This document shows positions 23,681 through 47,000 of a DNA stretch of 64,000 nucleotides, piece by piece (the stretch's first letter is position 1; every line of letters starts with the position of its first letter). The stretch is taken from positions 31,905-95,904 of the forward strand of contig JBAZBC010000018.1 of assembly GCA_041671745.1 (NCBI GenBank), given 5' to 3'. Below the pieces are notes generated by a model. That model worked only from the letters and a program-made list of their open reading frames with translations. It ran no database searches and was not told the DNA's origin. This DNA comes from Opitutaceae bacterium (GTDB taxonomy: Bacteria; Verrucomicrobiota; Verrucomicrobiia; Opitutales; Opitutaceae). A program made the translations under genes and the position numbers.

Positions 23681-23703
23681 TGCGATATTTTATTTCAAAC
23701 CCC

Positions 23704-28558: not shown

Positions 28559-29614
28559 ATGACAATCACACTCACTCAAGTCGCCAGGGAGGCCGGTGTC
28601 GCTTTGTCCACCGCGTCTTATGCCTTGCGGGGCAACCCGCTGATCAACGAACGCACCGCGCGGGTCGTGCGCGAGACCGCGAGCCGCCTGGGCTACCGGC
28701 CCAACGCGCAGGTTGCCGCGCTCATGACCCACATCCGCGCCGGCCGCGCCGTCCGCGAGGCCGAGCGCATCGCCTTTGTGCGGATCGACTCATTCGCGCC
28801 AGGCACGGAGCACGGGATGGCGGACGCGATCCTGGCGGCTGCGCGGCTGCGCGCCCGCGAGGCCGGCTATGGCATGGATGAATTCAATCTGGCCGATCCC
28901 GGCATGTCGCCGCGCCGGCTCGCCGCGGTCCTGCACGCGCGCGGCATCAGCGGCGTGTTGCTCTGCCCGTTGCCCGGCCGGGCGTCCCTCTCGCTGGACT
29001 GGAATTGGGACTGGTTCGCCACCGCTGTGATCGGCAACACCGCCTGCGATCCGGAGCTGCATCACGCGGGGCTGGACCATTACGCCGCGGTGCGGCTGGC
29101 CATGCGCAAGCTCCGAGAGTCGGGGGCGCGCACGATCTTCGGCTTGCTCGAAGGCGGCATCAACATCACGGCGAAGGAGGCGGTGGCGGCGGCCTTCGTC
29201 GAGCACCACCCGGAGCCCGCCCGCGCGCGCCGCTGGCTTGATCTGGGTCATGGTTGCGACACCGCGATGCGCCGCCGCCTGGACAAGCTGAGGCCCGACG
29301 CCGTGCTCACGACCTGGGCGCGGTGGAACGCGGCCTGCACCGCCGAAGGACCTTTGTCGTCGGGCGTGCGCGTGGCGCTGACCGACTGGCGGCCCAACAT
29401 CGCGGGGCTCCCCGGCGTGGATCATTGCGAGGCCGAGATCGCCGCCAGCGCGGTTGACCTCGTGGTGATGCAATTGCAGCGGAACCAACTCGGTCCGCCG
29501 GCGATGCCGCACATGCTCTCCTTTCCGGGCATCTGGCGCGAAGGGGTCGCGCGAGCGACGGCCACCGCGCCGGTCTCGACCGCATTGTGCGTCGGGCTGT
29601 CGTCGGCGGCTTGA
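28559..29614 (+). CDS. LacI family transcriptional regulator
   Basis: 'TLTQVAREAGVALSTASYALRG' HTH; 'YRPNAQVAALM' hinge. Confidence 0.88.
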   Translation: MTITLTQVAREAGVALSTASYALRGNPLINERTARVVRETASRLGYRPNAQVAALMTHIRAGRAVREAERIAFVRIDSFAPGTEHGMADAILAAARLRAREAGYGMDEFNLADPGMSPRRLAAVLHARGISGVLLCPLPGRASLSLDWNWDWFATAVIGNTACDPELHHAGLDHYAAVRLAMRKLRESGARTIFGLLEGGINITAKEAVAAAFVEHHPEPARARRWLDLGHGCDTAMRRRLDKLRPDAVLTTWARWNAACTAEGPLSSGVRVALTDWRPNIAGLPGVDHCEAEIAASAVDLVVMQLQRNQLGPPAMPHMLSFPGIWREGVARATATAPVSTALCVGLSSAA

Positions 29615-29638: not shown

Positions 29639-30502
29639 TCAGAAATTTTTGAGCCGGTAGGCGCGCGGACTCAGGCCGAAGTGTTTTTTGAAGAGCCGGG
29701 AAAAATGAAAGGGATCTTCGTAGCCCGCCTGAAGGGCGACAGCGGCGATGTTGAGCGTGCGGTCGGCGAGCAGGCGCGTGGCGTGGTGCATGTGGTGCTG
29801 GGTCAGGCATTGCACCGGCGAGACGCCGAACACCGCTTTGAAGCGGGCGCAAAAATGCGGGACGGACATGCCCGCGAGCGCCGCCATCTCGCTCAAGCTG
29901 ATGTGGCGGGCCGGCGCGGTGCCGATGAGCCGGCGGACCGCGAGCAGATTTTCCGGAATGCGCACGTTCATCGCGGAAGGCGCGACGCTGCGCACCAGAT
30001 CACGCAGCGCGTTTTCCAGCAGGTTGCCCACGATCACGACATCGGGTCGCGCGTAGGCGACGATTTCGCCGTGCATGTCGAGCAGGCCCTGTTGGAACAG
30101 CGCGGTGCGGATGCCGAAGGGCTGGAGGAGCGGAACGCGGGCTTCCTCCAGAATGCGGGCGACGCGACGACCGGTGCAATGAACCCAGCTATGGCAGAAG
30201 GGAGCGTTGGGATTGCCGTAATATTGGGAAGATCCGGGCGTCCAGACCATCATGGTTTCCGCTGGTGAAAGGGCCTCGTCCCGCGCAGTCGCGGAGATGA
30301 CCGCCGGGTCGTGAAACAACATGATGAGGTAGTCATCGGTGCCGCGCGTCCGGTTGATCATGCATGGGGGCATGGCCTCGCGCACGCCGATACCGCGCAC
30401 ATTCAGTTCGGGCGAGTCGAGCAGTTGTGGCGTGAAGAACTGACGAAAGCCGGGCACCGGGGCGCGGGAGGGGGATTTGGGAGACATGACGGGTAGGGGC
30501 AT
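29639..30502 (-). CDS. AraC family transcriptional regulator
   Basis: Cupin-like N-domain 'HSWVHCTG'; C-terminal double HTH 'AGMSVPHFCARFK...AGYEDPFHFSRLFKKHFGLSPRAYR'. Start uncertain (30502 or 30487; the longest ORF starts at 30535). Confidence 0.88.
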   Translation of the reverse strand: MPLPVMSPKSPSRAPVPGFRQFFTPQLLDSPELNVRGIGVREAMPPCMINRTRGTDDYLIMLFHDPAVISATARDEALSPAETMMVWTPGSSQYYGNPNAPFCHSWVHCTGRRVARILEEARVPLLQPFGIRTALFQQGLLDMHGEIVAYARPDVVIVGNLLENALRDLVRSVAPSAMNVRIPENLLAVRRLIGTAPARHISLSEMAALAGMSVPHFCARFKAVFGVSPVQCLTQHHMHHATRLLADRTLNIAAVALQAGYEDPFHFSRLFKKHFGLSPRAYRLKNF

Positions 30503-30511
30503 AATTTTATC

Positions 30512-30537
30512 CATGTTTATTAGATGACCGGCCATGT
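30512..30537. promoter_or_regulatory. CATGT direct repeat at 21-bp period (candidate AraC-type site) in the AraC/GH116 divergent region
   Basis: CATGT at 30512 and 30533; TATGTT (-10-like) at 30559-30564 downstream. Confidence 0.4.
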
Positions 30538-30624
30538 TATTTTAAGGCTGTTTTCGAGTATGTTTTGGGGAGTCCATCGGATGCGGGACGACCCCGTTCC
30601 CGCACGTATGGCAGACGAAACGCC

Positions 30625-33222
30625 ATGAACCCCGCAGAGCCCCTTTTCCCCTTCCGTTACCGTGACGATTTGCAAGTCGCGCTGCCCATCGGTGGCATCG
30701 GCGCCGGGTGCCTGTGCCTGAATGGCTCGGGCGGCCTGCAGGATTTTTCCCTGCGCAACCGTCCCTCGACGACCGCAGTGCCGGATCATTTGCCCTACGG
30801 TTGCCAGAACGCCGCCTTTGCCTTGCTCCACATCAAGGGGGACAAGCCTGTCACCCGGCTGATCGAAGGCCCCATCCCGCCGGAGAAAATCTACGACCAG
30901 GGTTTGCAGACCCAGGGCTTTCGTCACGGCGGACACGAGGGGTTGCCGCGTTTTTCCAAATCATCGTTTTCGGCCGGTTATCCTTTTGGGCGCGTGCAGC
31001 TGTCCGACCCCAAGGTGCCGGTCACGGCGGAAGTCACCGGGTTCAATCCGTTCATTCCCCTCGACGCCAAAAATTCAGGCATTCCCTGCGCCGTGCTGGA
31101 ATACACCCTTAAAAACACGTCGCGTCGCGAGGTGTCGCTGGAGTTCTCGTTCCACTGGTCGCACCCGGCGGTCAATATTGGCGATGGCGAGCAAGCGGCC
31201 CGCAATGCGGGCGAGCGCGAGTCGCGCACGGCCGTGGTCGACGGACGCGGAGTCAAATTTTTCAACACGTCGGTGCCCACGGCCGAGCAGTTCGGCACTG
31301 CGTGTCTGCTCGCGCCGAAGGGCAAGCCGTTGGTCAAGGCGATGTGGTTTCGCGGAGGCTGGTTCGACTCGATTTCGCAGCTCTGGCGCGAAGTATCGAC
31401 CGGCTCCTTCACGCCCAACGACGGCTGGGACGGCATCGACACCGACGAGCGCAACGGTGGCTCGATCCTGCTGCGCGCCCGGTTGAAACCCGGCCAGAGC
31501 ATCACGCATCCGGTCATTCTCAGCTGGCATTTTCCCAACGGCTACCAGGCGCAGGCGCACGGCGAGATGGGCTGGGCCAACGGTCGCGACCGCACCGACG
31601 GGCCGTGGTGGCGTCCCTACTACGCGGGCGTATGGGCGGACGCGGTCGAGGTGGCGCAATATGTGGCGGACAACTACCGGAGCCTGCGCGAGCGCACCGT
31701 CGCCTTCAACCGCGCGCTGTTTTCCTCGACGCTCCCGATGCCGGTGCTCGATGCAGTGTCGGCGAATCTGGCGATCATCAAGTCGCCCACGGTTCTTCGG
31801 CTGGAGGGCGGACAGTTGTGGGGTTGGGAGGGCTGTTATCCGGGCTGGGGCTGTTGCCCCGGCAGCTGCACGCATGTGTGGAACTACGCGCAGTCCATTC
31901 CGCATTTGTTTCCCGAACTGGAGCGCACGCTGCGTTCGCTGGAATGGGAACGCTCGATGGACGCTTCGGGCAAGGTCGCGTTCCGCGCGGCGCTGCCGAT
32001 CGGGCCGGCGCGGTTTAAGCACTGCGCGGCGGCCGATGGACAACTGGGGGGCATGCTGAAGCTTTACCGCGACTGGCACATCTCCGGCGACACGCCGTGG
32101 ATGGCCGGCCTGTATCCGCTCGCGCGGCTCAGTCTCGAATATGCCATCGAGACCTGGGACCCCGAGCGCACGGGATTGCTGGTCGAGCCGCATCACAACA
32201 CCTACGACATCGAGTTCTGGGGCCCGGACGGCATGTGCACGAGCATCTACATCGCCGCGTTGAGCGCGATGGCGCGTCTGGCCGCCGCACTCGGGCGAAG
32301 CAAAGACGAGCAGGCCTACGCCGCGCTCGCCGAACGCGGCGCGAAGGCCATGGCGGCGGAGTTGTTCAACGGCGAGTATCTCCAGCAGCGGGTGCGTTAC
32401 GCCGATCTGCGCGACAAATCTTTCCTGCAAGAGCTCGAGGCCCGCCTCGCCAAGGGCGGCCAGCGCGCGGCGCTCCTCAAGAACGAGGGACCGAAATACC
32501 AATATGGTTCGGGCTGTCTTTCCGACGGCGTGATCGGCGCCTGGATGGCGCGGATCTACGGCGTGGAGGCGCCCTTCGACCAGTCCCAGATCCGCTCAAC
32601 ATTGAGCGCCATTCACCGGCATAATTTCCGGAGCGATCTCGCGGAGCACGCCAACTGCCAGCGGCCGGGCTACGCCCTGGGCCATGAAGCCGGGTTGTTG
32701 TTGTGCTCCTGGCCGCGCGGCGAAAAACCCACGCTGCCCTTCGTCTATTCCGACGAGGTGTGGACCGGCATCGAATACCAGGTGGCGACGCATCTGATCG
32801 CCGAAGGCATGGTCAAGGAGGGCCTGGCGTTGGTGAAGGCGGTGCGGTCGCGCTACGACGGCCGCGTGCGCAATCCGTTCAACGAATACGAATGCGGCGG
32901 CTACTACGCGCGGGCGATGGCGAGCTACGCGTTGCTCGGCACGCTGTCCGGCTTCCGCTACTCGGCGGTCGAGCGCACGCTCTGGTTCGGCCCGAAGCTG
33001 CGCACGCTCCCGTTCCAGGTGTTTTTCTCCGCCGCCGAAGGGTGGGGCACCGTGCGCCTGGAAAAAGACCGGCTCGTGGTCTCGCTCGTCGAGGGCCGCC
33101 TGCCGTTGAAACGCATCCTCGTGGAAACCGCCGGGACCGTTCGCGAGCTCGTGGTGGACAAGGTCGTCAAGGCCGGTTCGCCGGTTTCCTTCCGCCTCGG
33201 CGCAACCCGGCGGCCTCGCTGA
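30625..33222 (+). CDS. GH116 family glycosidase (DUF608/GBA2-like)
   Basis: 'ALPIGGIGAG', 'GWEG...GSCTHVWNYAQ', 'AADGQLG', 'HNTYDIEFWG', 'EVWTGIEY', 'NPFNEYECG.YYARAMASY'. Start set at ATG 30625. Confidence 0.88.
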   Translation: MNPAEPLFPFRYRDDLQVALPIGGIGAGCLCLNGSGGLQDFSLRNRPSTTAVPDHLPYGCQNAAFALLHIKGDKPVTRLIEGPIPPEKIYDQGLQTQGFRHGGHEGLPRFSKSSFSAGYPFGRVQLSDPKVPVTAEVTGFNPFIPLDAKNSGIPCAVLEYTLKNTSRREVSLEFSFHWSHPAVNIGDGEQAARNAGERESRTAVVDGRGVKFFNTSVPTAEQFGTACLLAPKGKPLVKAMWFRGGWFDSISQLWREVSTGSFTPNDGWDGIDTDERNGGSILLRARLKPGQSITHPVILSWHFPNGYQAQAHGEMGWANGRDRTDGPWWRPYYAGVWADAVEVAQYVADNYRSLRERTVAFNRALFSSTLPMPVLDAVSANLAIIKSPTVLRLEGGQLWGWEGCYPGWGCCPGSCTHVWNYAQSIPHLFPELERTLRSLEWERSMDASGKVAFRAALPIGPARFKHCAAADGQLGGMLKLYRDWHISGDTPWMAGLYPLARLSLEYAIETWDPERTGLLVEPHHNTYDIEFWGPDGMCTSIYIAALSAMARLAAALGRSKDEQAYAALAERGAKAMAAELFNGEYLQQRVRYADLRDKSFLQELEARLAKGGQRAALLKNEGPKYQYGSGCLSDGVIGAWMARIYGVEAPFDQSQIRSTLSAIHRHNFRSDLAEHANCQRPGYALGHEAGLLLCSWPRGEKPTLPFVYSDEVWTGIEYQVATHLIAEGMVKEGLALVKAVRSRYDGRVRNPFNEYECGGYYARAMASYALLGTLSGFRYSAVERTLWFGPKLRTLPFQVFFSAAEGWGTVRLEKDRLVVSLVEGRLPLKRILVETAGTVRELVVDKVVKAGSPVSFRLGATRRPR

Positions 33223-33239
33223 TCCAGTTCATCTCCCCC

Positions 33240-34952
33240 ATGTATACCCTTGGCATTGATTACGGCACCAACTCCGTCCGCGCCCTTGTCGTCCGCTGCT
33301 CGGACGGTGCGGAGCTCGGCACCGGCATCGTCAACTATCCCGGCGGCCATCAGGGCGTGCTGCTGGATTCGCGCGATCACTCGCTCGCGCGGCAGAATCC
33401 GGCGGACTACCTGTTCGGCCTCGAAAAATCGGTGAAGCTGGCGCTCGCCGGGGCGCGCAAAACGAAGGGCTTCGACGTGCGTCGCGTGGCTGGCATCGGC
33501 GTCGATACGACCGGTTCGAGTCCGCTTCCGGTCGATGCGGGCAACGTCCCGCTCGCCTTCCAAAAAAAATGGGCGGACAACCTCGCCGCGCAGTGCTGGC
33601 TGTGGAAGGACCACACCAGCGCCGCCGAGGCCGCCGAGATCACCGCGCTCGCCGCCCGCCTGCGTCCGCACTATCTCGCCAAGTGCGGCGGCGCGTATTC
33701 GTCCGAGTGGTTCTGGTCGAAAACCCTGCATTGCCGCCGCACCGCGCCGAAGGTGTTTTCCGCCGCTTACTCGTGGGTGGAACTGGCCGACTGGATACCT
33801 TCCGTGCTGGCGGGTGTCACCGATCCGCGCGCGGTCGTCCGCGGTGTTTGCTGCGCCGGACACAAGGCGCTCTACGCGGATGACTGGGGCGGTCTGCCCG
33901 ACGCCAAGTTTCTTGCGAAGCTGGACCCCGGCTTGGCCGCGCTGCGCGACCGCCTCTACAAAAAAGCGCACGATGCCACGACGGCCGCCGGGGCGCTCTG
34001 CGAGAAGTGGGCCGATAAACTCGGTCTGCCCGCCGGCATCCCCATCGCCATCGGCGAGATGGACGTCCACTACGGAGCCATCGGCTCCGGCGTCGCCGAA
34101 GGCACGCTGGTCAAGGTCATCGGAACCTCCAGCTGCGACTGCGGTGTGGTCCCGATCAAGCGACGCGTGGCCGACATCCCCGGAATCTGCGGCATCGTGA
34201 AAGGCGCGATTCTTCCCGGCTTCCACGGTCTGGAAGCGGGGCAGTCCGCCGTCGGCGATATTTTCAAATGGTTCGTCGAGGGCGTGCTCGGAGATGTGTC
34301 GCTGCACGCCGGGCTCACCGCCGAGGCCGCGAAGCTCAAGCCCGGTCAATCGGGTCTGCTGGCGTTGGATTGGAACAACGGCAATCGCACGGTGCTGGCC
34401 GATCCGCTCCTCTCCGGCCTGCTTCTCGGGCAGACGCTCTACAGCACGCGTGCGGAAATTTATCGCGCGCTGATCGAAGCCACGGCGTTCGGGGCGCGCG
34501 CGATCATCGAGCGTTTTCGGGAATACGGCGTGCGCGTCGATCGCGTCGTCTGCGCCGGCGGCATCGCCGAAAAAAATCCGCTGCTCATGCAGATCTATGC
34601 GGACGTCACCGGTTGCACGATGCGTGTCGCCGGTTCGGCGCAGGCCTGCGCGCTTGGCGCCGCGTTGTCCGCGGCCGTCCTGGCCGGGGAGCATCCGGAC
34701 TTTGCGACCGCGCAGCGGAAGATGACGCGGTTGAAACCAATCGCCTTCAAACCCCGCCCCGCCGAGGCGCGCGTCTACGAACAGCTCTACGCGCTGTATC
34801 GGAAACTCCATGACGCGTTTGGCGGAGTCGGCGGGGCCGTCGATCTCTCCGGGGTGATGAAAGAACTCATCGCCATCAAGTCCGCCGCGCACGGTCCGGC
34901 GAAGAAAACGAGCCGGGCCAAATCCACCGCCCGCGCCCGCCGCAAATCCTGA
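33240..34952 (+). CDS. araB: Ribulokinase (FGGY family)
   Basis: 'YTLGIDYGTNSVRA', 'IGVDTTGSSP', 'LWKDHT', 'YSSEWFWSK', 'AGHKA', 'LDWNNGNRT', 'IEATAFG'. True start is ATG 33240; the ORF-track start 32703 overlaps GH116. Confidence 0.88.
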   Translation: MYTLGIDYGTNSVRALVVRCSDGAELGTGIVNYPGGHQGVLLDSRDHSLARQNPADYLFGLEKSVKLALAGARKTKGFDVRRVAGIGVDTTGSSPLPVDAGNVPLAFQKKWADNLAAQCWLWKDHTSAAEAAEITALAARLRPHYLAKCGGAYSSEWFWSKTLHCRRTAPKVFSAAYSWVELADWIPSVLAGVTDPRAVVRGVCCAGHKALYADDWGGLPDAKFLAKLDPGLAALRDRLYKKAHDATTAAGALCEKWADKLGLPAGIPIAIGEMDVHYGAIGSGVAEGTLVKVIGTSSCDCGVVPIKRRVADIPGICGIVKGAILPGFHGLEAGQSAVGDIFKWFVEGVLGDVSLHAGLTAEAAKLKPGQSGLLALDWNNGNRTVLADPLLSGLLLGQTLYSTRAEIYRALIEATAFGARAIIERFREYGVRVDRVVCAGGIAEKNPLLMQIYADVTGCTMRVAGSAQACALGAALSAAVLAGEHPDFATAQRKMTRLKPIAFKPRPAEARVYEQLYALYRKLHDAFGGVGGAVDLSGVMKELIAIKSAAHGPAKKTSRAKSTARARRKS

Positions 34953-34976
34953 ATTTTCCCGTCCATTTTTCCCATC

Positions 34977-36053
34977 ATGAGCAACTCATTCTATACCGCA
35001 TCGCTGGGGGGACTCTCCCAGCTTACACGCGCCCGCACGCGCTCGATCAGTCCGGAGAATCCCACCGGTGAAAAAGGGCGCGGCGGCATGGCCACCGACG
35101 GCACCGGCGCGAAGGCCGCCCGCGATCTCGGGATCGGCTGGAAACTTTCACCCGCCTGGGACATCGCCCCGAAAACCATCTACGAGCTCGCGCGAATCGA
35201 CGGCCCGGGCGTGATCCAGCAAATCTGGATGACACCCACCGGCATCTGGCGGAACCTGATTCTGCGCATCTACTGGGACGGACAGGAGCACCCCTCGGTC
35301 GAGTGCCCGGTGGGCGATTTTTTTGCGAACGGCTGGGGCAGTTATGCGCGGGTCGATTCGCAGGCGGTGTGCGTGAACCCGGGCAGCGCCTTCAATTGCT
35401 ACTGGCCGATGCCTTTCCGCAAAGGCTGCCGCATCACCTACGAAAATATCGGCGACGATCCCTGCCGCCTGTATTTTCAAATCAACTACGCCGAGCAGGA
35501 GATCCCGGAGGACGCGGCTTATTTCCACGCGCAGTTCCGCCGGGTGAATCCGCTGCCTTACAAGGAAGTCTACACCATCCTCGACGGCGTCGAGGGCTGG
35601 GGACACTACGCGGGCACCTACATGGCCTGGGGCGTGAACAACGCGGGTTGGTGGGGCGAGGGCGAAATCAAGTTCTACCTCGATGGTGACGAGTATCCCA
35701 CGATCTGCGGAACGGGGACCGAGGATTATTTCTGCGGCTCCTACAACTTCGAGAACCGTATCACCAAGCAATACGACACGTTCAATTCGGCCTACGCCGG
35801 ACTGCCGCAGATTATCCGTCCGGATGGCACCTACGCGTCGCAGACGCGTTTCGGGATGTATCGCTGGCACCTGATGGATCCGGTCCGCTTCGAGAAGGAC
35901 CTGAAGGTCACGATCCAGGCGCTCGGCTGGCGCCACGGCGGGCGTTATCTCCCGCTGCAGGACGACATCGCATCGGTCGCCTACTGGTATCAGCAGAAGC
36001 CGTCGAAGCCGTTCCCGCCTCTGCCGGAACGCGACTACTTGGAAATCGTCTGA
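34977..36053 (+). CDS. DUF2961 / GH172 family glycosidase (paralog 1)
   Basis: 'RSISPENPTGEKGRGG', 'LRIYWDG', 'PVGDFF', 'YWPMPF', 'WWGEGEIKFYLDGD','GTGTEDYF'. Confidence 0.9.
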   Translation: MSNSFYTASLGGLSQLTRARTRSISPENPTGEKGRGGMATDGTGAKAARDLGIGWKLSPAWDIAPKTIYELARIDGPGVIQQIWMTPTGIWRNLILRIYWDGQEHPSVECPVGDFFANGWGSYARVDSQAVCVNPGSAFNCYWPMPFRKGCRITYENIGDDPCRLYFQINYAEQEIPEDAAYFHAQFRRVNPLPYKEVYTILDGVEGWGHYAGTYMAWGVNNAGWWGEGEIKFYLDGDEYPTICGTGTEDYFCGSYNFENRITKQYDTFNSAYAGLPQIIRPDGTYASQTRFGMYRWHLMDPVRFEKDLKVTIQALGWRHGGRYLPLQDDIASVAYWYQQKPSKPFPPLPERDYLEIV

Positions 36054-36068
36054 GCAGACGAAAGGCCG

Positions 36069-36103
36069 GCCGCCCCGTCTGCGATCAACGCGGACGGGGC
36101 GGC
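36069..36103. terminator. Long GC hairpin between convergent GH172 and hypothetical genes
   Basis: GCCGCCCCGTCTGCG-atcaa-CGCGGACGGGGCGGC: 15-bp stem with one G.U pair, between converging stop codons at 36053 and 36110. Confidence 0.6.
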
Positions 36104-36109
36104 GCGCAA

Positions 36110-37402
36110 TCAATGGCGGGGCGGGTTGCCCAGCAGCCAGGCGTATTCGGCGAAGAAACCGAAGGAGCCGCGCAGCGATGTCCACGGCACGCGGGCGATG
36201 AACGGAGAGAGTTTTCCGGAAATCTTCAGGTCCGCATCGGCGCCGGGCGCGAGCAGCGCGATGGCGGCGGCGCAGAGCGGTTCGCGAATGGTCGAATTCT
36301 CCAGGTTGCGCCCGTGGTTTTTCCAATCGCCGAGTTCCGACAGGGCGAGGGCCACGGCGTCGTCGACGGTCGCCTGGGCGTGCCAGTGCGCATTGAGCGC
36401 GCGCCAGTCGGTGTCCATCGGCGCGAGCGAGACGTCGGCCGTCGGGGCCGCGACGATCCGGGGGGCGACGGTCACGGCGTTGAGACGCAGGGCCGCGAGG
36501 TATTTTTCGCGGATGGCCGGGCGCGATTCCAGGTCAACCAAGGCGCGCAGCATCGCCTGCGGGTTCACGCTGATCCAGAGCTGCCGGTCCATGCCGTGAC
36601 TTTGCGCGAAGAGGCCGGGCAGGCCTGCCTCGACATAATCGAGCATCGTCTTGCCGGTGCGCGTCGGGGCGGTGAGCGCGTTTTCATAGGCGTGCAGCCA
36701 GGATGAATCCCGCGTGATCTCGTAGATGATCCGGGTGATGAAAAGTTGACGGCAGGCGCTGCGGAAATCGGGAGCCGCCAGGGTGCCGCGAATCTGGCCG
36801 GGCGGAAGTCCGCCGGAGGAATCGCAAGGCAGATACCATTTCAGCCCGCGCAAGGTCGTGGCCAGCGCGACCATTTTTGCCTCGATCTTTGTTTTCTCCT
36901 CCGGGGTCGCGGCGCCCGAGCGGACGTAGGCCCAGAGACCTTGGAACCACGGGGCGGTCTGGTCGTCGGAGCCGATGGCGTAGTGGCTCTTGCCGTCGGC
37001 CGACACGTTGCGGGCGACGAAACCCGGCACGTCGGAGACTGAAGCGGCGAGCAGGAGACCGCGGGCCAGTTTGCCTGCGTTCGCGCGGTCGGCGGCGGCA
37101 CCGGTGAGCTGCCAGCGACGCACCGCGGCATCGAGGTAGATGCCGGTGAAGAAGGTGCCGTTTTCGACCGGCGTCCACCAGGCGAGCGCGTTGGGTTTGC
37201 CCTCAAGGCACTCCGACGCGGTGGGCAGTTCGATATTCCCGGACGGCGTGGTGTAGTCGAGCAGGAGTCCGTTCGGCTGCACGAAGCGGGTCCACAGATC
37301 TTTGTGAATGGTCTCGATCAGCGCGGGCAGGGCGGCTGCCGAAGCCGCCGATGGCAAGGCAAGAGACAGAAGAGCCACCAAGGTCACGAGGGGTAAACGC
37401 AT
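36110..37402 (-). CDS. Secreted hypothetical protein, probably helical (six-hairpin-glycosidase-like)
   Basis: Clear signal peptide MRLPLVTLVALLSLALPSAASA; Trp/Asp/Glu-rich segments 'WWTPVENG', 'GFVARNV', 'SDDQ'; no family recognised. Confidence 0.6.
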   Translation of the reverse strand: MRLPLVTLVALLSLALPSAASAAALPALIETIHKDLWTRFVQPNGLLLDYTTPSGNIELPTASECLEGKPNALAWWTPVENGTFFTGIYLDAAVRRWQLTGAAADRANAGKLARGLLLAASVSDVPGFVARNVSADGKSHYAIGSDDQTAPWFQGLWAYVRSGAATPEEKTKIEAKMVALATTLRGLKWYLPCDSSGGLPPGQIRGTLAAPDFRSACRQLFITRIIYEITRDSSWLHAYENALTAPTRTGKTMLDYVEAGLPGLFAQSHGMDRQLWISVNPQAMLRALVDLESRPAIREKYLAALRLNAVTVAPRIVAAPTADVSLAPMDTDWRALNAHWHAQATVDDAVALALSELGDWKNHGRNLENSTIREPLCAAAIALLAPGADADLKISGKLSPFIARVPWTSLRGSFGFFAEYAWLLGNPPRH

Positions 37403-37503
37403 GGCGATTTTCTCTAAGTGAGAACGATTGCCGGCACGAGCCGCCTTGAGCGGATTTCAACGGTCTCGATGATTTATCCCGGGGTGAATTGAAGGGGCTC
37501 TGA

Positions 37504-38742
37504 TCAAGCGTTGGCGGATGTCAGGGAGGCAGGCCCGAGCTTAAGATTCATGATTCTTTCCTCCACCGGTCGCAATGCGGGCAAGCCGTTCTCCGGCGCA
37601 TCGAGGTAAAAGTAGGCCGCACCGCTCCAGTCGTCGCAGCGATAAAAATTGCACCAACGTTCGGCCAGGGCCGGGTCACCGAGATCGGGTTCGCCGTCTT
37701 CCTTCAAGCGCCACAGCCAGGATTTTCCCGGGCCGAGCGGGTTCTGTCCATCCCACGAAAGACTGATCGGATCCAACGGCACGCCGGCCGTTCGCTTTTG
37801 ATGAACCCAGGCGGCCTGGCATCCTCCGATGGTGTCCAACACGGCGCGAAAATCCGTGTGAAAATACACCGGGTCGACCGTGTGGAATCTATACATGCCG
37901 AACTGGCGTGCGCCTCCATCGGCCAGCGTGCAACCCTGCGTGGGGTGTGAGAAAAGACCCTGGCAATAGCCCGTCCCGATATAATCCTCCTCGCCCGTGC
38001 CGCAGAGCGTTGGATGACGTTCGTCTCCATCGAGCCACGCCTTGAATTCGCCTTCGCCCCACCAGGAACCATCGTAGATCGGATCTAGATTCACGCCGAA
38101 ATGGGTGCCGAGAAAGCGGCCGCGCCCTGACACGCGCGGAAGCAGGGTGAACGGTTCGCCCAACACGTTCGGGGATTCACGTCTCCAGTGGGTGTGAAAA
38201 TACAGGGCTTCGGCGGGATGCTCCACGCCCATGAGCAGATTCACATCGTAGAAAAAATGTTTGAGGCAATGGGGCCCCTCGTTGGTGACGGTGATGCGAG
38301 CGGAACGTCGGAATGGCATCGGCACGAAGCAATTGAAAGAGCGTCCCTCGGGGGAAGAGAAGAATTGATTGGCGAAGGGCAACGCACGCGCGAGCGAGGC
38401 ACCAAAGAAATCGCCGATCGGAGCGGATACGGCGGGAGTGGTCGCACCGTCCCAGAACATGTCGATCCGCAGCGCGCGCAACATGGAGGCCGGTTTCCCC
38501 TCGAAGGTCAGATCAAACAGGGTCGCCCAGATGCGGGTGATCAGCCCACTGCCTTCAACATCCAGGAGGGTCTTGCTTTCGCCGGGGTGGATGCAGCACC
38601 AGGCCGACCCCTTGGCACCCCGGTTGGTAGTCGCGGCGGTTCCCTTGCCGGCGGAGGGATTTTCGAAGCTGGCCCACCGGGTCTGCCAGGAGCGAGGGGC
38701 ACTGTGATAGAGGGGGAGGGTCAGGGGATCGGGCGGTGTCAT
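37504..38742 (-). CDS. DUF2961 / GH172 family glycosidase (paralog 2)
   Basis: 'WASFENP', 'LRIDMFWDG', 'PIGDFFG', 'FVPMPF', 'WWGEGEFKAWLDGD', 'GTGEEDYIG', 'YRFH..DP'. Confidence 0.9.
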   Translation of the reverse strand: MTPPDPLTLPLYHSAPRSWQTRWASFENPSAGKGTAATTNRGAKGSAWCCIHPGESKTLLDVEGSGLITRIWATLFDLTFEGKPASMLRALRIDMFWDGATTPAVSAPIGDFFGASLARALPFANQFFSSPEGRSFNCFVPMPFRRSARITVTNEGPHCLKHFFYDVNLLMGVEHPAEALYFHTHWRRESPNVLGEPFTLLPRVSGRGRFLGTHFGVNLDPIYDGSWWGEGEFKAWLDGDERHPTLCGTGEEDYIGTGYCQGLFSHPTQGCTLADGGARQFGMYRFHTVDPVYFHTDFRAVLDTIGGCQAAWVHQKRTAGVPLDPISLSWDGQNPLGPGKSWLWRLKEDGEPDLGDPALAERWCNFYRCDDWSGAAYFYLDAPENGLPALRPVEERIMNLKLGPASLTSANA

Positions 38743-38782
38743 CAGGGGAGCCTACACGTTAACCGGATTTGCGGAAAGCGTC

Positions 38783-38808
38783 CATGTAGCAAGTTCCCGA
38801 AAACATGT
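38783..38808. promoter_or_regulatory. Second CATGT direct repeat at 21-bp period in the GH172/MFS divergent region
   Basis: CATGT at 38783 and 38804, same spacing as at 30512/30533. Confidence 0.4.
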
Positions 38809-38954
38809 CGGATCTTATGAAGTTTCCGGATTCTGGCGCGGGGAAGCGAAATTGAACGGATTCGATACCGTCGCATTTGCGCACACCATGCCGGAAGATG
38901 AATTCGTAGGGTTGGTTGGCGCGGGTGAATATTCACGCCGTTGCGGCCAACCCG

Positions 38955-40469
38955 ATGACCACCCAGGCCCATATCAACGAACGCGACCGCATCCCATTTC
39001 TCCAGAAGCTGATGTTCAGCCTCGGCATCAATATGGACTATGTGGCCACGGGCTTGATCACGGGCGTTCTTTGGATGCCTTTTTTCAACATCGGGCTGGG
39101 CATGTCGCCGACCGTGTTGGGAATCATCCTGATGGTCCTGCGATTTTGGGATGCGATGACGAATCCGGTCATCGGCAACCTTTCGGACAACGCGCGCACA
39201 CGCTGGGGGCGCCGCCGGCCCTTCATGTTCGTCGGGGCGATCACGACCGCCGCGATTTATCCGCTGTTCTGGTATATTCCCGCCGGCCTTGGCGACACCG
39301 GGCGCATCGTTTACCTGACCGTGATCGGACTGGTTTTCTTCACCAGCTTCACCGTGTGGTCGATGCCCTACTACTCGTTGCAGATGGAGCTGACGCCCGA
39401 CTACGACGAGCGCACGCGGCTCACGGCCTGGATGACGTTTTTCGGGAAAGGCTCCTTCCTGGTCGGAAGCTGGATACTGGCGTTTGTCATTTTGCTCGGC
39501 GGGGTGGCGCTGAACCAGCCGGCGGTTTTTGAGGGGCACGACGGATTTGCTGGGTCGTTGCTCCGGTGGTTGCAGCCGCTGCTGGCGGTCTTCGGGTCCA
39601 ACGCTGCGGATGAAAAGCCGGTTGTGGTCGGCATGCGGATCTGCAGCTGGTTCATCGCGCTGGGTATATTGGTGTTCGGCTTGCTGCCTGCGATTTTTGT
39701 GAAGGAGCGGCCCCTGCCGGCGGTAATCGGGAAAAAGGATCGCGAGCCGTTTTGGCAGAGCGTGCGAGACTCGGCGCGATCGATGCCGCTCTGGTCGCTG
39801 ATCAGCATCTCGTTCTTTCTGGTGCTGGGATCGACGGCGGTGGGAAGCCTCGGCCAGTATTTGAATATCTACTACGTCTTCCACGGCGATCTTGGCGCCG
39901 CGGCCTACGTCGCCGGCTGGAAAGGCTCGGTCCTCGTGACGGCGGGAATCATCTCGATCCCCTTTTTCACCTGGCTGGGGGAAAAGTGGGACAAGCGCAC
40001 CGTGGTGCTCGTGATGCTTGGGGTGAGCATGGCGGGCCATTTTTTGAACCTGTTCATGATGACGCCGGAGCATCCCTACTGGCAGCTGATTCCGGGAGTG
40101 ACGGAGTCGTGCGGCATCGCGGCGATCTGGCTGTTCCTGCCCTCGATGAAGGCGGATGTGGCCGACGCCGACGAACTCAAGACCGGGCGCCGGCGCGAAG
40201 GCTCGATCAACTCGTTTTTTTCCTGGTTTCTCAAACTGGCGTTCACCGCCTCGATGGGAATCGGCGGCGTGCTGCTCGAGCTGTCGGGCTTTGATGCGAA
40301 AATCAACGACCAGCCGCCCGAGGTGCTCCATCGCATGATGTGGCTCTACATCGCGCTGCCGACCGTCATCTGGGGTATCGCGATGGTGTCGTGCTGGTAT
40401 TTCCCGCTCGGACGCAAAAAGTGCGCCGAGATCCGCGCGGAGCTGGAAGCCCGCCGAGGACAACGCTGA
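38955..40469 (+). CDS. MFS transporter, glycoside-pentoside-hexuronide (MelB/GPH) family
   Basis: About 12 hydrophobic segments; 'WDAMTNPVIGNLSD.ARTRWGRRRPF', 'ELTPDYDERT', 'ADVADADE..TGRRREG'. Start set at ATG 38955. Confidence 0.9.
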   Translation: MTTQAHINERDRIPFLQKLMFSLGINMDYVATGLITGVLWMPFFNIGLGMSPTVLGIILMVLRFWDAMTNPVIGNLSDNARTRWGRRRPFMFVGAITTAAIYPLFWYIPAGLGDTGRIVYLTVIGLVFFTSFTVWSMPYYSLQMELTPDYDERTRLTAWMTFFGKGSFLVGSWILAFVILLGGVALNQPAVFEGHDGFAGSLLRWLQPLLAVFGSNAADEKPVVVGMRICSWFIALGILVFGLLPAIFVKERPLPAVIGKKDREPFWQSVRDSARSMPLWSLISISFFLVLGSTAVGSLGQYLNIYYVFHGDLGAAAYVAGWKGSVLVTAGIISIPFFTWLGEKWDKRTVVLVMLGVSMAGHFLNLFMMTPEHPYWQLIPGVTESCGIAAIWLFLPSMKADVADADELKTGRRREGSINSFFSWFLKLAFTASMGIGGVLLELSGFDAKINDQPPEVLHRMMWLYIALPTVIWGIAMVSCWYFPLGRKKCAEIRAELEARRGQR

Positions 40470-40495
40470 ACCGGTTGCCACATCTTTTTTCACGC

Positions 40496-42556
40496 ATGAG
40501 TTCCATCGCATCCCTTCCTCTTGCCGGGCTTGAAGCCGGCACCCTTTCACTTGGCGGCGCACCCGTGCTGCACGGCTTGCCGGCCGACTGGACGCTGAAC
40601 GCGGTGCCCGGCGGCGCGTTCCTCCGCGCCGCGCCGAAAGAGTGTCACTGTTTCCTGGAGTTGCCGGCCGGCCGCATCGCCGGGCTCTCGCGGTTCACGA
40701 GCTGCTACCGGTTCGTGCCGTTCTGGATGAAACCGGCGGGCGGCCGCACCGAGGCGGACGTCAAACCGGAGACGATGTGGATACTGGCGGAGACGGCGTC
40801 CGGTTACGCGTTGATTGTGCCGCTGCTCGACGGCGTCAACCGCTACAGCCTCACGGGCACGGCGACGGGGCTCTCGCTCGTGATCGAGACGGGCGACCCG
40901 ACGATCCCGTGCACGGCGGGCACGGCGCTCTTCGTTGCAACGGGTCAGGACCCTTACTCGCTGCTCACGGAGTCGGCGCGCATCGTGGGTGCTCATTTTG
41001 GCGGACGGCGTTTGCGCACGGAAAAGCCGGTTCCTGATTTCGTGGAGCTGTTCGGCTGGTGCACGTGGGACGCTTTCTACAAGGAAGTGACCGAGGAAAA
41101 AGTGCTGGCGGGCCTGGAGGTGTTTGCGGCAGGCGGAGTGCGTCCGCCGCTGCTGATCCTGGATGACGGCTGGCAAAGCTACGAACGCTTCCCGACGGGG
41201 GAGGACCGGTTGGTGAGTCTTAAGCCGAACGCACGTTTCAACGGCGACCTCACTCCGCTGGTTCGCGCGAGCAAGGAGCGTTACGGCGTGCGCAGCTTTT
41301 TTGTGTGGCACGCGTTCATGGGTTACTGGGGCGGGGTCGATCCGCAGGCGCTGCCCGCCTATGGCTCGCGCACGATGCCGCGCAGTTTCGGGCCGCATGT
41401 GCTGCGGCAGGAGTGGACCTGGAACGTCTGGCCTTGGGGTGCCCTGGTCTCGGTGCCGGCGGCGGACCGCATCGCGGCGTTTTACGACGACTACCATTCA
41501 GGACTGGTCGCGCAGGGCGTGGACGGCGTGAAGGTGGATGTGCAGGGCATGGTCGAGGCCGTCGCCTCCGGTCAGGGCGGGCGCGTGGCGCTGCATCGCG
41601 CGTATCGGGCGGCGTTGGACGGATCGGTTAACAGGCACTTCGCCGGACGTCTGATCAATTGCATGTCGAGCACCTCGGAGTGCGCCTATCTGGCAGACAC
41701 CGCGGTCTTGCGAAGCTCGGACGATTTTTATCCGCAAAAGCCCGGAAGCCACGGCATGCACCTGTTCGCCAACGCGCAGGTCGGCCTCTGGTTTGGCGAG
41801 TTCATGCTGCCCGACTGGGACATGTTTCAGACGACGCACGACTACGGGGCCTTCCACGCGGCTTCGCGGGCGATCTCCGGCGGGCCGGTTTATATTTCGG
41901 ACAAAGCCGAGGCTCATGATTTCGTGCTGCTGCGGAAACTGATGCTTTCCGACGGCACGATCCTGCGCGCCGACCATCAGGCGAAACCGACTCCGGATTG
42001 CCTTTTCTCCGATCCGACGGCCGAGGATGTGTTGTTGAAGATTTTCAACCGCAACGGGGATTGCGGCGTGGTGGGACTGTTCAATGTCCGTCCCCCATCC
42101 GGCGTAGTAAATGCACCCAAGGCGATCACCGGCGAAGTCTCGCCGGCGGATATCCCCGGCTTCGCCACGGATGACGCGGACTTTATCGGCTATGCGCACC
42201 AGGCGGACCGCTTGTGGCGGGCAGGGCGGGGCGGGCACGAAACCTTTGAGCTGATCGAAGGCGCGTGGGAGCTCGTGTCGTTCGCCCCGGTTGAAAACGA
42301 TTTCGCGGCGCTTGGTCTGGCGGACAAGTTCAACTCGACCGGCGCGGTGACTGCGCGCGAGTGGCACGGGCCAAAAGGGGTCGAGGTGACTTTGCGTGAC
42401 GGCGGACGATTCTTGGCCTGGTCGAAAGTGTGCCCGGCCTCGGTGCGGACTGCGGCGGGCGAAGCGCTGGCGTTCGATTACGACATGCATTCCGGCCGGC
42501 TCACGGTCGACCTTGCCGCCAAGGGACCGGTGACCGTTCTGGTTACCTTTGCCTGA
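40496..42556 (+). CDS. GH36 alpha-galactosidase, Sip1/raffinose-synthase type
   Basis: 'FGWCTWDAFY', 'ILDDGWQ', 'VWHAFMGYWGG', 'DGVKVD', 'SSDDFYP', 'PDWDMF', 'ISGGPVYISD'. Start set at ATG 40496. Confidence 0.9.
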   Translation: MSSIASLPLAGLEAGTLSLGGAPVLHGLPADWTLNAVPGGAFLRAAPKECHCFLELPAGRIAGLSRFTSCYRFVPFWMKPAGGRTEADVKPETMWILAETASGYALIVPLLDGVNRYSLTGTATGLSLVIETGDPTIPCTAGTALFVATGQDPYSLLTESARIVGAHFGGRRLRTEKPVPDFVELFGWCTWDAFYKEVTEEKVLAGLEVFAAGGVRPPLLILDDGWQSYERFPTGEDRLVSLKPNARFNGDLTPLVRASKERYGVRSFFVWHAFMGYWGGVDPQALPAYGSRTMPRSFGPHVLRQEWTWNVWPWGALVSVPAADRIAAFYDDYHSGLVAQGVDGVKVDVQGMVEAVASGQGGRVALHRAYRAALDGSVNRHFAGRLINCMSSTSECAYLADTAVLRSSDDFYPQKPGSHGMHLFANAQVGLWFGEFMLPDWDMFQTTHDYGAFHAASRAISGGPVYISDKAEAHDFVLLRKLMLSDGTILRADHQAKPTPDCLFSDPTAEDVLLKIFNRNGDCGVVGLFNVRPPSGVVNAPKAITGEVSPADIPGFATDDADFIGYAHQADRLWRAGRGGHETFELIEGAWELVSFAPVENDFAALGLADKFNSTGAVTAREWHGPKGVEVTLRDGGRFLAWSKVCPASVRTAAGEALAFDYDMHSGRLTVDLAAKGPVTVLVTFA

Positions 42557-44044: not shown

Positions 44045-47000
44045 ATGAAAATATCCAAACCCAACTCGGGTTTCGCACTGCTGATAACGATCACGCTGCT
44101 GGCGTTTCTTGTCCTCCTGCTGGTTTCCCTGGCGAGTTTGACGCGCGTGGAGACCCAGGTGGCGAGCAACAACCAGCAGCTGTCGCAGGCCCGCCAGAAT
44201 GCGCTGATGGCGCTGCAGCTTTCCCTCGGCCAGTTGCAGAAACTCGCCGGCCCCGACCAGCGGGCGACTACCACGGCGGAGATCAACGCCACCGGGCAGA
44301 ACGGCACGCGTTTCTGGACGGGCGTGTGGGGCAACGGAAACACTGCGGACGATTACCAGAGCACGCCGCGGTTGTTGAACTGGCTGGTGAGCGGCAACGA
44401 GCAGATCGCGTTCACCGCCGAAACCACCGCGGCCGCCTTCGGCCAGATTTCCGCGACGGCAACACCGGACCATGTTCCCACGGAGGCGGTGGTGCTGGGC
44501 GCTGCGACGACGACCGGCGCCCTGACGACAGACGCCACGCTCAAGGCCCAGCCCGCCCGTGTGCTGATGGGGCCGGGCAGCGTGCTCGACGCGAAGGACT
44601 ACGTGCTGGCGCCGCTGGTAAACATCGAGGTGCCGGCGAGCACGGTGCCGGGCTTGAGCGGCGCGACCGCGACGACCGTGGGGCGCTATGCCTGGTGGGT
44701 GGGCGACGAAGGGGTCAAGGCGAAGCTCAACACCGTTGATCGCTGGCGGACTACGGCCTCCACCAATGCTGAGCGGTTCAACCGGCTGCTGGTGACGGAG
44801 CGCTATGGAATCGAGCAGGTTTCGACCGACATCTATTCGGCGGCAACTCCGGCGGTGTTTGGGGCCGCAGTTTACAACGAGTCCGACCAGGCGTTCCGCG
44901 AAAGCCTGGCCAAGGTTACCAATTATTCCCAAGCGGGGTTGCTTACCGGATTTTCGACGGCGGCCCCCAAGGCGGGCATTAGCCGGCGGCGGCACGACCT
45001 GAGCACCTATTCGACGGGCGTGCTGGCCGACCAGAGGCGCGGCGGACTGCGCAAGGACCTCACGGTGCTATTCGACACCAACCCGGGGGCCTGGACGGGC
45101 GCGCTCAAGACCAGTTTGGACGAGGCCAGTTACATCTATTCGGACGGCGTGCGTCGCGTGGCAGATTTCCAGAGTGGCCGGCTGTATGGCACCGCTTATT
45201 CGATGAATCCGGGCGTGGCAAAGGACGGACGTTCGCCGAAAGCCGCTACGTGGGAGCAGCTCGGTAGTTATTACCGGCTCGCGCAGACCAACACCGGCAC
45301 GACAACCGCGACGGCGCAGACCAACACGCAGATGGCGGTTTTCCCCGTGGTTCAGTGGGCGCGAATCGCGTTCGACGTGACCTGCGCGGCGGATGGGAGC
45401 GGAGGCCAGCTTCACTTCATTCCACAGGTCGCGCTCTGGAATCCCTACAACACCACGCTGCGCGGCGAATACCGCATCCGCTTCGAGTTCTCGCCGGACT
45501 GGAACGCGCCTTACACGACGCTTTCGTATCTCTATCTGGCCTCCTACGCTCTCAATCCCGACGGGACGCCGAATACGGGTGCACCGCTGGAAGTCTATCG
45601 GCGCGAGTTGTTCGCCGCTCCGCGGCCAGGCACGGGTAAATACGCCAATAACACACTCGAGTTCCTCATCGAGCTGGGCGATATCCCGGCGGGACAGGCG
45701 CGAATCTTCACGCCCAAGGTGACGTCGGGTTACAACACCAACGGCAATAACACACTGGCCAACGCCGTAAACACGACGACTTCGTTTACGCGCCCGATCG
45801 GCCATGCGTTCACTCCGACGCAGGTGAGCGACACCGCGCTGGCTTTTGCCTCAACAGGGACGGCAGGCGGATTGCTCTGTATTCATTTGTTGGATAATGC
45901 AGGCATACCGCTGCAATTGGTGGACGGCATGGGGTTGATCCCGACGGTTGCGCTCAGTTCCACCGCCGATCCCGCGTCGGCCACGCCAAAGCCGACACTT
46001 TCAAGCACTTATACCGCTTCGCTGCGCGCTTTGAGCACTCCGCGCAATCTTACCGGCGGGGTGGACTACCGGCACCACATCGGCTTCAGCTACGGCAATC
46101 ATCTCCAGGCAAACGAACAAAGGCTCAACTGGCTGGCGCAGTATAACGTGCGTGCGCCGTCCCTCGGGCGGACGTTCACCGAACTGGGCGCCGGCATAGG
46201 TTACTCAGGCAACGGGGGTGCCAACACATCCTATCAGACCAACCACTCCTCCTGGGATATCACCGAGCTTCCGTCCGATTCGAAGCGCACTTACACCGGC
46301 CCGAGATTTGACACCACCGGGCTGCCCGAGGCGGTTTTGTTCAGTCTTCCCCGGCCCGAAACCCCCGTTCTCTCGGTCGGGCAGTTGCAGCATGCGGTCA
46401 CGAGTTTCATGCCCTCGGGCCAGGAGCCGACCTATCCCCTGGGCAACGCCTATGCGTCGCCCTACATCCAGCAGGACAAACTGCTCCGGCCCAATACCGT
46501 CGCCTCGGCAACGACCGGCGCCGGCGCCGAGGCGCATCTCACCGACGTGTCCTTCCTGCTTAACCACGCGCTGTGGGACCGATTTTTCTTTTCCTCCACG
46601 CCCAACGTCACTGCGGCCCAGTTGCAGGCGCAGATCGCCGCAGGCACGCCTCCGGCCAATGCACGTATCCACTATCTGGGCACGCCGGCCGCCGCCGATG
46701 TGCGCGACTTCAGCCGCGCCGCCGCACACTTGATCGTCGACGGCGCGTTCAACGTGAACTCGACCTCGGTGGAGGCATGGACCGCGCTGTTCGCCAGCCT
46801 GCGCAATGTCGGCGTGTCGCCGGCTGACGGCAGCGCCGCCGCTCCCGTTGCGGCCAGTCCGTTTGTGCGCACACCGTTCGTGACGGGCGGGGCGGACACC
46901 GCCAGCCGGACCGACCAGTGGACCGGTTACCGCAGCCTGACCAATGAACGCGTTCTGGCCGTCGAGGTGGTGAACGAGATCCGGACGCGCGGCCCGTTCC

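Follow-up and report, generated by a model that had tools for sequence, protein, structure and literature searches.

A ribulokinase of the AraB type embedded between two predicted D-arabinofuranosidase genes in a groundwater Opitutaceae metagenome sequence

D-Arabinan is the hallmark cell-wall glycan of the Mycobacteriales, and its natural turnover has barely been studied; the first D-arabinan enzymes date from 2023 and came from Actinomycetota and a single member of the Bacteroidota. Does a member of the Verrucomicrobiota carry genes for its use, and why would a sugar kinase of the L-arabinose type stand among them? These questions are raised by a 64,000-nucleotide stretch (hereafter the window) of contig JBAZBC010000018.1 from an Opitutaceae bacterium, in which a preliminary description noted a GH116 glycosidase, a ribulokinase, two GH172 paralogs (here GH172a and GH172b) and a GPH-type transporter and read the set as a locus for D-arabinan utilization. 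Among sequencing runs, the sequence occurs only in DNA runs of groundwater metagenomes and in no RNA run, and no isolate of the organism exists. Among the proteins clustering at 90% identity with an enolase-family protein encoded nearby are ones labeled Verrucomicrobiota, Opitutaceae and Ruficoccus, which supports the class Opitutae well and makes the family Opitutaceae plausible. We re-annotated the region by combining a listing of open reading frames (ORFs) with Pfam and NCBIfam profiles. The profiles bore out all five gene calls (Table 1), and three further genes were added that had been left out: an AraC-family regulator, an ORF for a secreted 430-aa protein, and an α-galactosidase-like gene after the GPH gene.

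The core of the locus is a three-gene operon of GH116, ribulokinase and GH172a (30625–36053, + strand), with a divergent AraC-family regulator and a strong hairpin at its end. The kinase gene starts 17 nt past GH116 and GH172a starts 24 nt past the kinase, all three on the same strand, and a consensus scan found no terminator-like site within either gap. The hairpin closes this run, and equal folding was obtained in 0 of 200 shuffled sequences. Because the gaps are short, the genes share one strand, and a terminator follows only GH172a, we argue that the three genes are co-transcribed. The promoter and terminator consensus scans were at chance level and only the hairpin stood out; the single sigma-70-like match (30477–30505) was not better than chance. 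Homologs of the AraC regulator were found likewise divergent and immediately upstream of a GH116 gene that is an orphan (53% identity, L001) and of a GH172a ortholog in a Verrucomicrobiota metagenome-assembled genome (MAG; 49% identity, L025), suggesting that one regulator type serves GH116 and GH172a alike in Verrucomicrobiota. No signal peptide was found on GH116, the kinase or GH172a.

The best PDB match of GH116 was the exo-β-D-arabinofuranosidase ExoMA2 (8IC6/8IC7, E = 2.7e-120), whereas the solved β-glucosidases and glucosylceramidases, GBA2 included, reached only about 1e-11 (7e-11 or weaker). By these E-values, not by a tree, GH116 is nearer to ExoMA2 than to the subfamilies of glucosidases, xylosidases and GlcNAc-ases. 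In ExoMA2, E431 is the nucleophile and D557 the acid/base, while R483 and H446 recognize O2 of the arabinofuranose (His and Asp in the TxGH116 β-glucosidase). The corresponding residues are present in GH116, where E402 (WEG), H417, R454 and D528 (NTYDIEF) align to ExoMA2 E431, H446, R483 and D557, and the three motifs were kept in 117 of 120 close homologs. The prediction that GH116 is a subfamily-4-like exo-β-D-arabinofuranosidase is thus strongly backed by sequence comparison.

GH172a matched ExoMA1 best (8IC8, E = 2e-131; 57% identity over 351 residues), compared with 1.4e-41 for αFFase1, the difructose dianhydride I (DFA I) enzyme, so that for both glycosidases the D-arabinofuranosidases lead the PDB matches by ~100 orders of magnitude. 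The WWGEGE and GTG.EDY motifs were intact in GH172a and GH172b, as the preliminary description had noted. In GH172a, E228 (acid/base, WWGEG), E249 (nucleophile) and D250 (GTGTED) correspond to αFFase1 E270, E291 and D292 and to their ExoMA1 equivalents. Shimokawa et al. (2023, PMC10509167) reported that Asn253 of ExoMA1 blocks the 1-hydroxymethyl group of fructofuranose. Asn257 of GH172a aligns to this residue, whereas αFFase1 has Gly299 there, and a Tyr-Asn pair is the consensus at the specificity position, found in 51 of 66 GH172a orthologs. The presence of Asn257 disfavors the fructoside substrates proposed earlier as an alternative for GH172a, and its annotation as an ExoMA1-type exo-α-D-arabinofuranosidase is strongly supported. 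The PDB matches and specificity residues accordingly sustained the preliminary reading of GH116 and GH172a as putative D-arabinofuranosidases.

The kinase gave a different picture. It matched B. halodurans ribulokinase (PDB 3QDK, 7e-111), and a metagenome scan yielded 80 relatives at 58–81% identity, which adjoined L-arabinose isomerase (AraA) in 51 cases and L-ribulose-5-phosphate 4-epimerase (AraD) in 48; their operons often added a LacI regulator, an SSS transporter and a mutarotase. The window also contains a LacI gene (28559–29614), which was rejected as the ara-operon LacI of these relatives at ~29% identity. Neofunctionalization of the kinase was likewise rejected, since no excess of substitutions was observed at conserved columns: of 189 highly conserved columns it departs from the ortholog consensus at 1, and the other orthologs do so at a median of 2. 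Judged by its sequence, the kinase is an ordinary AraB (L-ribulokinase) ortholog of araBAD operons; the ribulokinase of the preliminary description was present, but not as an enzyme dedicated to D-arabinose. This embedded araBAD-type kinase is the one unusual trait of the locus. Cottam et al. (2025, PMC12307932) reported that AraB phosphorylates D-ribulose physiologically in enterohemorrhagic Escherichia coli (EHEC) and is required for D-ribulose use, and with the embedded ortholog it can be tested in a simple setting whether a promiscuous L-ribulokinase serves D-pentose catabolism.

We scanned species-representative genomes for relatives of GH172a, which returned at least 595 stretches; the neighborhood counts given here use the best 80 (L005–L084). 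These 80 orthologs shared 66–75% identity and came from about 19 phyla, including Chloroflexota, Armatimonadota, Acidobacteriota, Planctomycetota, Bacillota, Bacteroidota and Gemmatimonadota, with several Verrucomicrobiota MAGs and one Cephaloticoccus (Opitutaceae) MAG, and from habitats ranging over rumen, human gut, sludge, soil and groundwater. Actinomycetota were absent among these best 80. Such unusual conservation across phyla points to strong constraint or else to extensive horizontal transfer. GH116 was the single commonest neighbor, lying within 10 kb at 9 of the 80 independent loci and directly adjacent in 7, a co-location that exceeds chance. The gene orders included FucI-GH172-GH116 in Neglectibacter (L082), GH172-GH116-MFS_2 in Caldicoprobacterales (L015), and an FGGY kinase, a FucI-like gene and GH172 in Anaerolineales (L064), and in 11 such ortholog loci the leading families did not include DUF4185. 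As a module, then, the exo pair recurs, has a wide distribution and usually comes without an endo-enzyme. It is spread among environmental bacteria including Verrucomicrobiota, and points to a broad guild of scavengers of D-arabinofuranosyl (D-Araf) oligosaccharides or to an unrecognized common D-Araf substrate. Because the pair is recurrent and widespread, its presence in a verrucomicrobium is less novel than the preliminary description supposed. We found no literature report linking D-arabinan to Verrucomicrobiota, in agreement with that description, nor one of a new GH116 subfamily-4 activity; ExoMA1-type GH172, often together with GH116, is nevertheless present in many phyla and in the Cephaloticoccus MAG. 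The locus adds one more instance of an enzyme pair that is already known and very widespread, and does not amount to a new kind of system.

Two side observations concern these relatives. A protein of ~500–550 aa without a Pfam match adjoins ExoMA1-type GH172 in three phyla (L054, 3883–5478; L064, 8134–9789; L057, 5547–7061); its similarity to L-fucose isomerase was faint (24–26% identity, E = 1e-8 to 4e-4), and it may represent an unrecognized family of D-arabinose isomerases. The GH116 homologs at L001–L004 (P0002, P0017 and P0091; Verrucomicrobiota and Acidobacteriota) lay among housekeeping genes and kept the ExoMA2 catalytic motifs.

As the best explanation, which we hold to be slightly more probable than not, GH116, the kinase and GH172a would act in the cytoplasm as a finishing module on D-arabinofuranosyl oligosaccharides. 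In this scheme, GH116 would strip terminal β-D-Araf caps and GH172a would cleave α-D-Araf residues to give free D-arabinose. An isomerase encoded elsewhere in the genome (FucI-like) would convert D-arabinose to D-ribulose, and the AraB-type kinase of the operon would phosphorylate this to D-ribulose-5-phosphate, which would enter the pentose phosphate pathway. Since no endo-D-arabinanase was found in the window, this groundwater organism of the class Opitutae probably scavenges fragments of Mycobacteriales-type D-arabinan, or of other D-Araf glycans, that are released by others, and uptake may proceed via the neighboring GPH symporter. What we observed is the gene content with its order and spacing, the homology, and the conservation of catalytic and specificity residues; we infer the enzyme activities, the in vivo substrate of the kinase, the role of the transporter and the natural glycan.

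Several results weigh against this proposal. No GH183 (DUF4185) was found in any scanned ORF of the 64-kb window, and tblastn searches of the window found no D-arabinose- or fucose-type isomerase (queries: FucI of L082 and FucI-like proteins) and neither araA nor araD. Because GH183 and an isomerase are missing from the window, it holds at most an exo-acting or scavenging module and not a complete D-arabinan locus; the claim for a D-arabinan utilization locus as a whole was given up, and its core was trimmed to the AraC regulator, GH116, the AraB-type kinase and GH172a. GH116 or GH172 lay beside none of the 80 kinase relatives, and an AraB-type kinase occurred in none of the 80 GH172a-ortholog loci; on these two counts the kinase-glycosidase linkage is specific to this lineage, and it could be incidental. 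The kinase itself matches L-ribulokinases in araBAD context, the nearest at 80% identity. GH116 is just ~33–38% identical to ExoMA2, and its closest homologs (60–66% identity), from Terrimicrobiaceae and Acidobacteriota, are orphan genes with unrelated surroundings. Most GH172a orthologs likewise lack conserved neighbors, with widely varying contexts, and both observations leave no firm pointer to what these widespread genes act on naturally.

Comparison with known systems shows how much of them the window retains. Shimokawa et al. (2023, PMC10509167) described a D-arabinan polysaccharide utilization locus (PUL) of Microbacterium arabinogalactanolyticum with EndoMA1/2 (GH183), ExoMA1 (GH172), ExoMA2 (GH116), an isomerase, a kinase and an ABC transporter, and the exo-enzymes are intracellular in the Microbacterium model. 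In characterized D-arabinan loci, D-ribulose-5-phosphate is reached through an isomerase plus a kinase that are encoded there. The window shares with the Microbacterium PUL the exo-enzyme pair, its catalytic and specificity residues, the lack of signal peptides on the exo-enzymes and a sugar kinase alongside. Unlike that PUL, it has no GH183 or isomerase, its kinase is AraB-type, its candidate transporter is a GPH and not an ABC system, its host belongs to Verrucomicrobiota, and it additionally encodes a second, divergent GH172 as well as a secreted protein without a family match. PUL42 of Dysgonomonas gadei contains three GH172, two GH183, a putative GH116 and a fucose isomerase (Al-Jourani et al. 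2023, PMC10115798; Ross et al. 2026 preprint). Divergent GH172 paralogs also accompany GH116 in the window, and GH172b shares the Cys of Dg79 at the specificity position, whereas SusC/D, GH183 and fucose isomerase are lacking and GH172b is no close relative of any D. gadei enzyme. Relative to the LacI-araB-araA-araD operons of its relatives, the kinase, which scores above the NCBIfam ribulokinase cut-off, is well conserved, whereas araA and araD are not in the window, homologs of D-arabinofuranosidases flank the kinase, and the neighboring regulator is AraC-type instead of LacI-type. In the Aau/AraB system of EHEC, an L-ribulokinase serves D-ribulose phosphorylation, as it would here; there, AraB remains part of araBAD and D-ribulose is taken up directly, whereas in the window the kinase stands among enzymes predicted to release D-Araf and an isomerase step would be needed. 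With αFFase1 of Bifidobacterium dentium, a DFA I synthase/hydrolase, the GH172 proteins share family, fold and the catalytic Glu pair, and its fructofuranose-admitting Gly299 is replaced by Asn in GH172a and by Cys in GH172b.

Table 1. Positions of the operon, its regulatory sites and the adjoining genes in the window
Feature	Position	Strand	Evidence and remarks
AraC-family regulator	29639–30535	-	HTH_18 4.3e-24, HTH_AraC 5e-21; likely controller of the operon
AT-rich spacer, 89 nt, between divergent AraC and GH116	30536–30624		presumed promoter/operator; role inferred
GH116, subfamily-4-like, predicted cytoplasmic exo-β-D-arabinofuranosidase	30625–33222	+	Glyco_hydr_116N (PF12215, N-terminal β-sandwich) 3.5e-44, DUF608 (PF04685, (α/α)6 catalytic domain) 2e-47
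AraB-type ribulokinase, FGGY family	33240–34952	+	NF003154, 615 bits (cut-off 428)
GH172a, ExoMA1-type, predicted cytoplasmic exo-α-D-arabinofuranosidase	34977–36053	+	DUF2961 (PF11175, double jelly-roll) 3.8e-96, profile positions 1–235 of 235
GC-rich hairpin between convergent genes, probable bidirectional terminator	36065–36107		15-bp stem, -39 kcal/mol, z = -5.3
Secreted 430-aa protein, predicted (α/α)6-barrel	36110–37402	-	signal peptide; module membership uncertain
GH172b, divergent GH172 clade	37504–38742	-	DUF2961 7.3e-64
GPH/MFS_2 glycoside:cation symporter, candidate oligosaccharide importer	38916–40469	+	MFS_2 4.8e-65, TIGR00792 1.7e-47
Raffinose-synthase/alkaline α-galactosidase-like gene	40493–42556	+	Raffinose_syn 8.9e-137; PDB 7EXF (AtRS6) 3.9e-118

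GH172b keeps the catalytic residues E230, E252 and D253, and showed 36% identity to ExoMA1 and 34% to GH172a (4e-26 against αFFase1 and 7.6e-27 against Dg79). Its specificity position holds Tyr259-Cys260, as opposed to Trp-Asn in ExoMA1, Trp-Gly in αFFase1 and Trp-Cys in Dg79 and BACUNI_00161. With Cys260 replacing Asn and a remote sequence, GH172b is a member of GH172 with intact motifs, as first described, but not an ExoMA1-type enzyme. Its clade comprises thousands of uncharacterized proteins in unrelated contexts, and in it the αFFase1-like Trp-Gly pair was found in 111 of 120 members (P0155–P0274) and the Tyr-Cys pair in GH172b and its two nearest relatives; this pair may mark a specificity switch inside the clade. 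Conserved partners of GH172b were not found at the two homologs examined, which were orphans. Dg79 is an α-1,5-D-arabinofuranosidase without DFA I activity.

The GPH gene is divergent from GH172b across a shared intergenic region of 173 nt and ends 23 nt before the raffinose-synthase-like gene; the same order recurs on a contig of another sample with 95% identity. GPH is probably co-transcribed with the raffinose-synthase-like gene, and a role in α-galactoside uptake is at least as likely as one in arabino-oligosaccharide uptake; the transporter gene was confirmed, but with this tighter linkage it may serve the raffinose-synthase-like gene instead of D-arabinan use. An MFS_2 gene does follow the GH172-GH116 pair in L015. 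A 405-aa PL22-like β-propeller gene (oligogalacturonate lyase, weak match at 1.2e-4) follows the raffinose-synthase-like gene and makes up with it and GPH an apparent operon to 43808 (+).

The secreted 430-aa protein had no match in Pfam, NCBIfam or PDB sequences. Its AlphaFold model was an (α/α)6-barrel (pLDDT 92.4), for which the best Foldseek hits, at E ~1e-2, were GH76, AGE-type epimerases and PL2. Its 34 homologs were mostly from Verrucomicrobiota, together with Paenibacillus and Devosia, and their neighbors (GH42-like, melibiase-like and solute-binding protein (SBP) genes) were unrelated to D-arabinan. The invariant residues of the family include several Asp, Glu and Trp, and it is a candidate for a new carbohydrate-active family. 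We also considered the protein as a hidden endo-arabinanase; with no sequence match, Foldseek hits no better than 1e-2 and unrelated contexts, this was neither supported nor excluded. A bolder version of our proposal, in which AraB was captured into a D-arabinofuranosidase operon and feeds D-arabinose from scavenged fragments to the pentose phosphate pathway while the secreted (α/α)6-barrel protein replaces GH183 as the extracellular endo-enzyme, appears improbable to us.

How the region is partitioned decides how far the locus extends. Two or three unrelated units might be present, namely (i) AraC, GH116, araB and GH172a, (ii) GH172b and the 430-aa protein, and (iii) GPH, the α-galactosidase-like gene and the PL22-like gene for α-galactoside uptake, so that GPH and GH172b would have nothing to do with D-arabinan. 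The strong hairpin divides unit (i) from unit (ii), GPH stands close to the AtRS6-like gene in a conserved order, genes of the GH172b clade and the 430-aa family occur elsewhere in unrelated contexts, and at least 10 other GH genes lie in the window. On the other hand, three divergent GH172 enzymes act together in D. gadei PUL42, the MFS_2 transporter of L015 follows the enzyme pair, and GH172b and GPH share their divergent intergenic region. We regard this partition as a serious possibility, a little short of an even chance; it is compatible with a finishing module, which needs neither GPH nor GH172b. The kinase, in turn, could be the organism's L-ribulokinase for L-arabinose, placed here by genome rearrangement or a shared "arabinose" regulon, with D-arabinose catabolized by another route or not at all. 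The AraA and AraD neighbors of its close relatives, its undiverged sequence, the lack of a D-arabinose isomerase in the window and an arrangement found in no other sampled locus are in accord with this, whereas the short same-strand gaps with a terminator only past GH172a point to co-transcription, characterized D-arabinan loci also carry a kinase, and AraB is a competent D-ribulokinase in vivo (PMC12307932). Moreover, the window lacks both AraA and AraD, so that no displaced ara operon is present, and we hold this explanation to be unlikely.

The finishing module could also act on a different glycan. D-Arabinofuranosides would then be cleaved, but the natural substrate would be another widespread D-Araf glycan, for instance the α-1,5-D-Araf glycan of pilins or a further polysaccharide of bacterial surfaces, and not actinobacterial arabinogalactan (AG) or lipoarabinomannan (LAM). 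The occurrence of ExoMA1-type GH172 in about 19 phyla, from rumen and human gut to groundwater, mostly without GH183 nearby, fits this idea, as does the degradation of Pseudomonas aeruginosa pilin D-Araf oligosaccharides by D. gadei GH172 enzymes. Yet the recurrent pairing of α- and β-D-arabinofuranosidases fits a glycan with both linkages, which AG and LAM D-arabinans carry, whereas the pilin glycan is described as α-1,5-linked only; Mycobacteriales, moreover, are widespread in soil and water. A substrate other than AG or LAM seems rather improbable. Least probable is a locus for α-D-fructofuranosides or difructose dianhydrides. The GH172 family does include αFFase1, and the Trp-Gly pair prevails in the clade of GH172b, but GH172a has the fructofuranose-blocking Asn of ExoMA1, GH172b has Tyr-Cys and resembles Dg79, GH116 matches a β-D-arabinofuranosidase, and the kinase is a pentulose kinase and not a fructokinase.

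For enzyme tools in the structural analysis of LAM and AG, the locus adds divergent candidates; it offers no new mechanism. The wider window is a CAZyme-dense region with at least 10 further GH genes, in which GH10, GH2 and GH42-like genes, a SASA esterase and PEP-CTERM proteins were recognized. Four very large ORFs (1673, 921, 1179 and 1305 aa; 18659–26442, 44045–47584 and 48487–52404, + strand) had no or marginal Pfam matches. A GFO/IDH/MocA oxidoreductase gene at 248–1588 was identical on a contig from another sample (L170), where transposase fragments and McrBC/HNH genes take the place of its neighbors in the window; at its left edge, the window thus differs from sample to sample.

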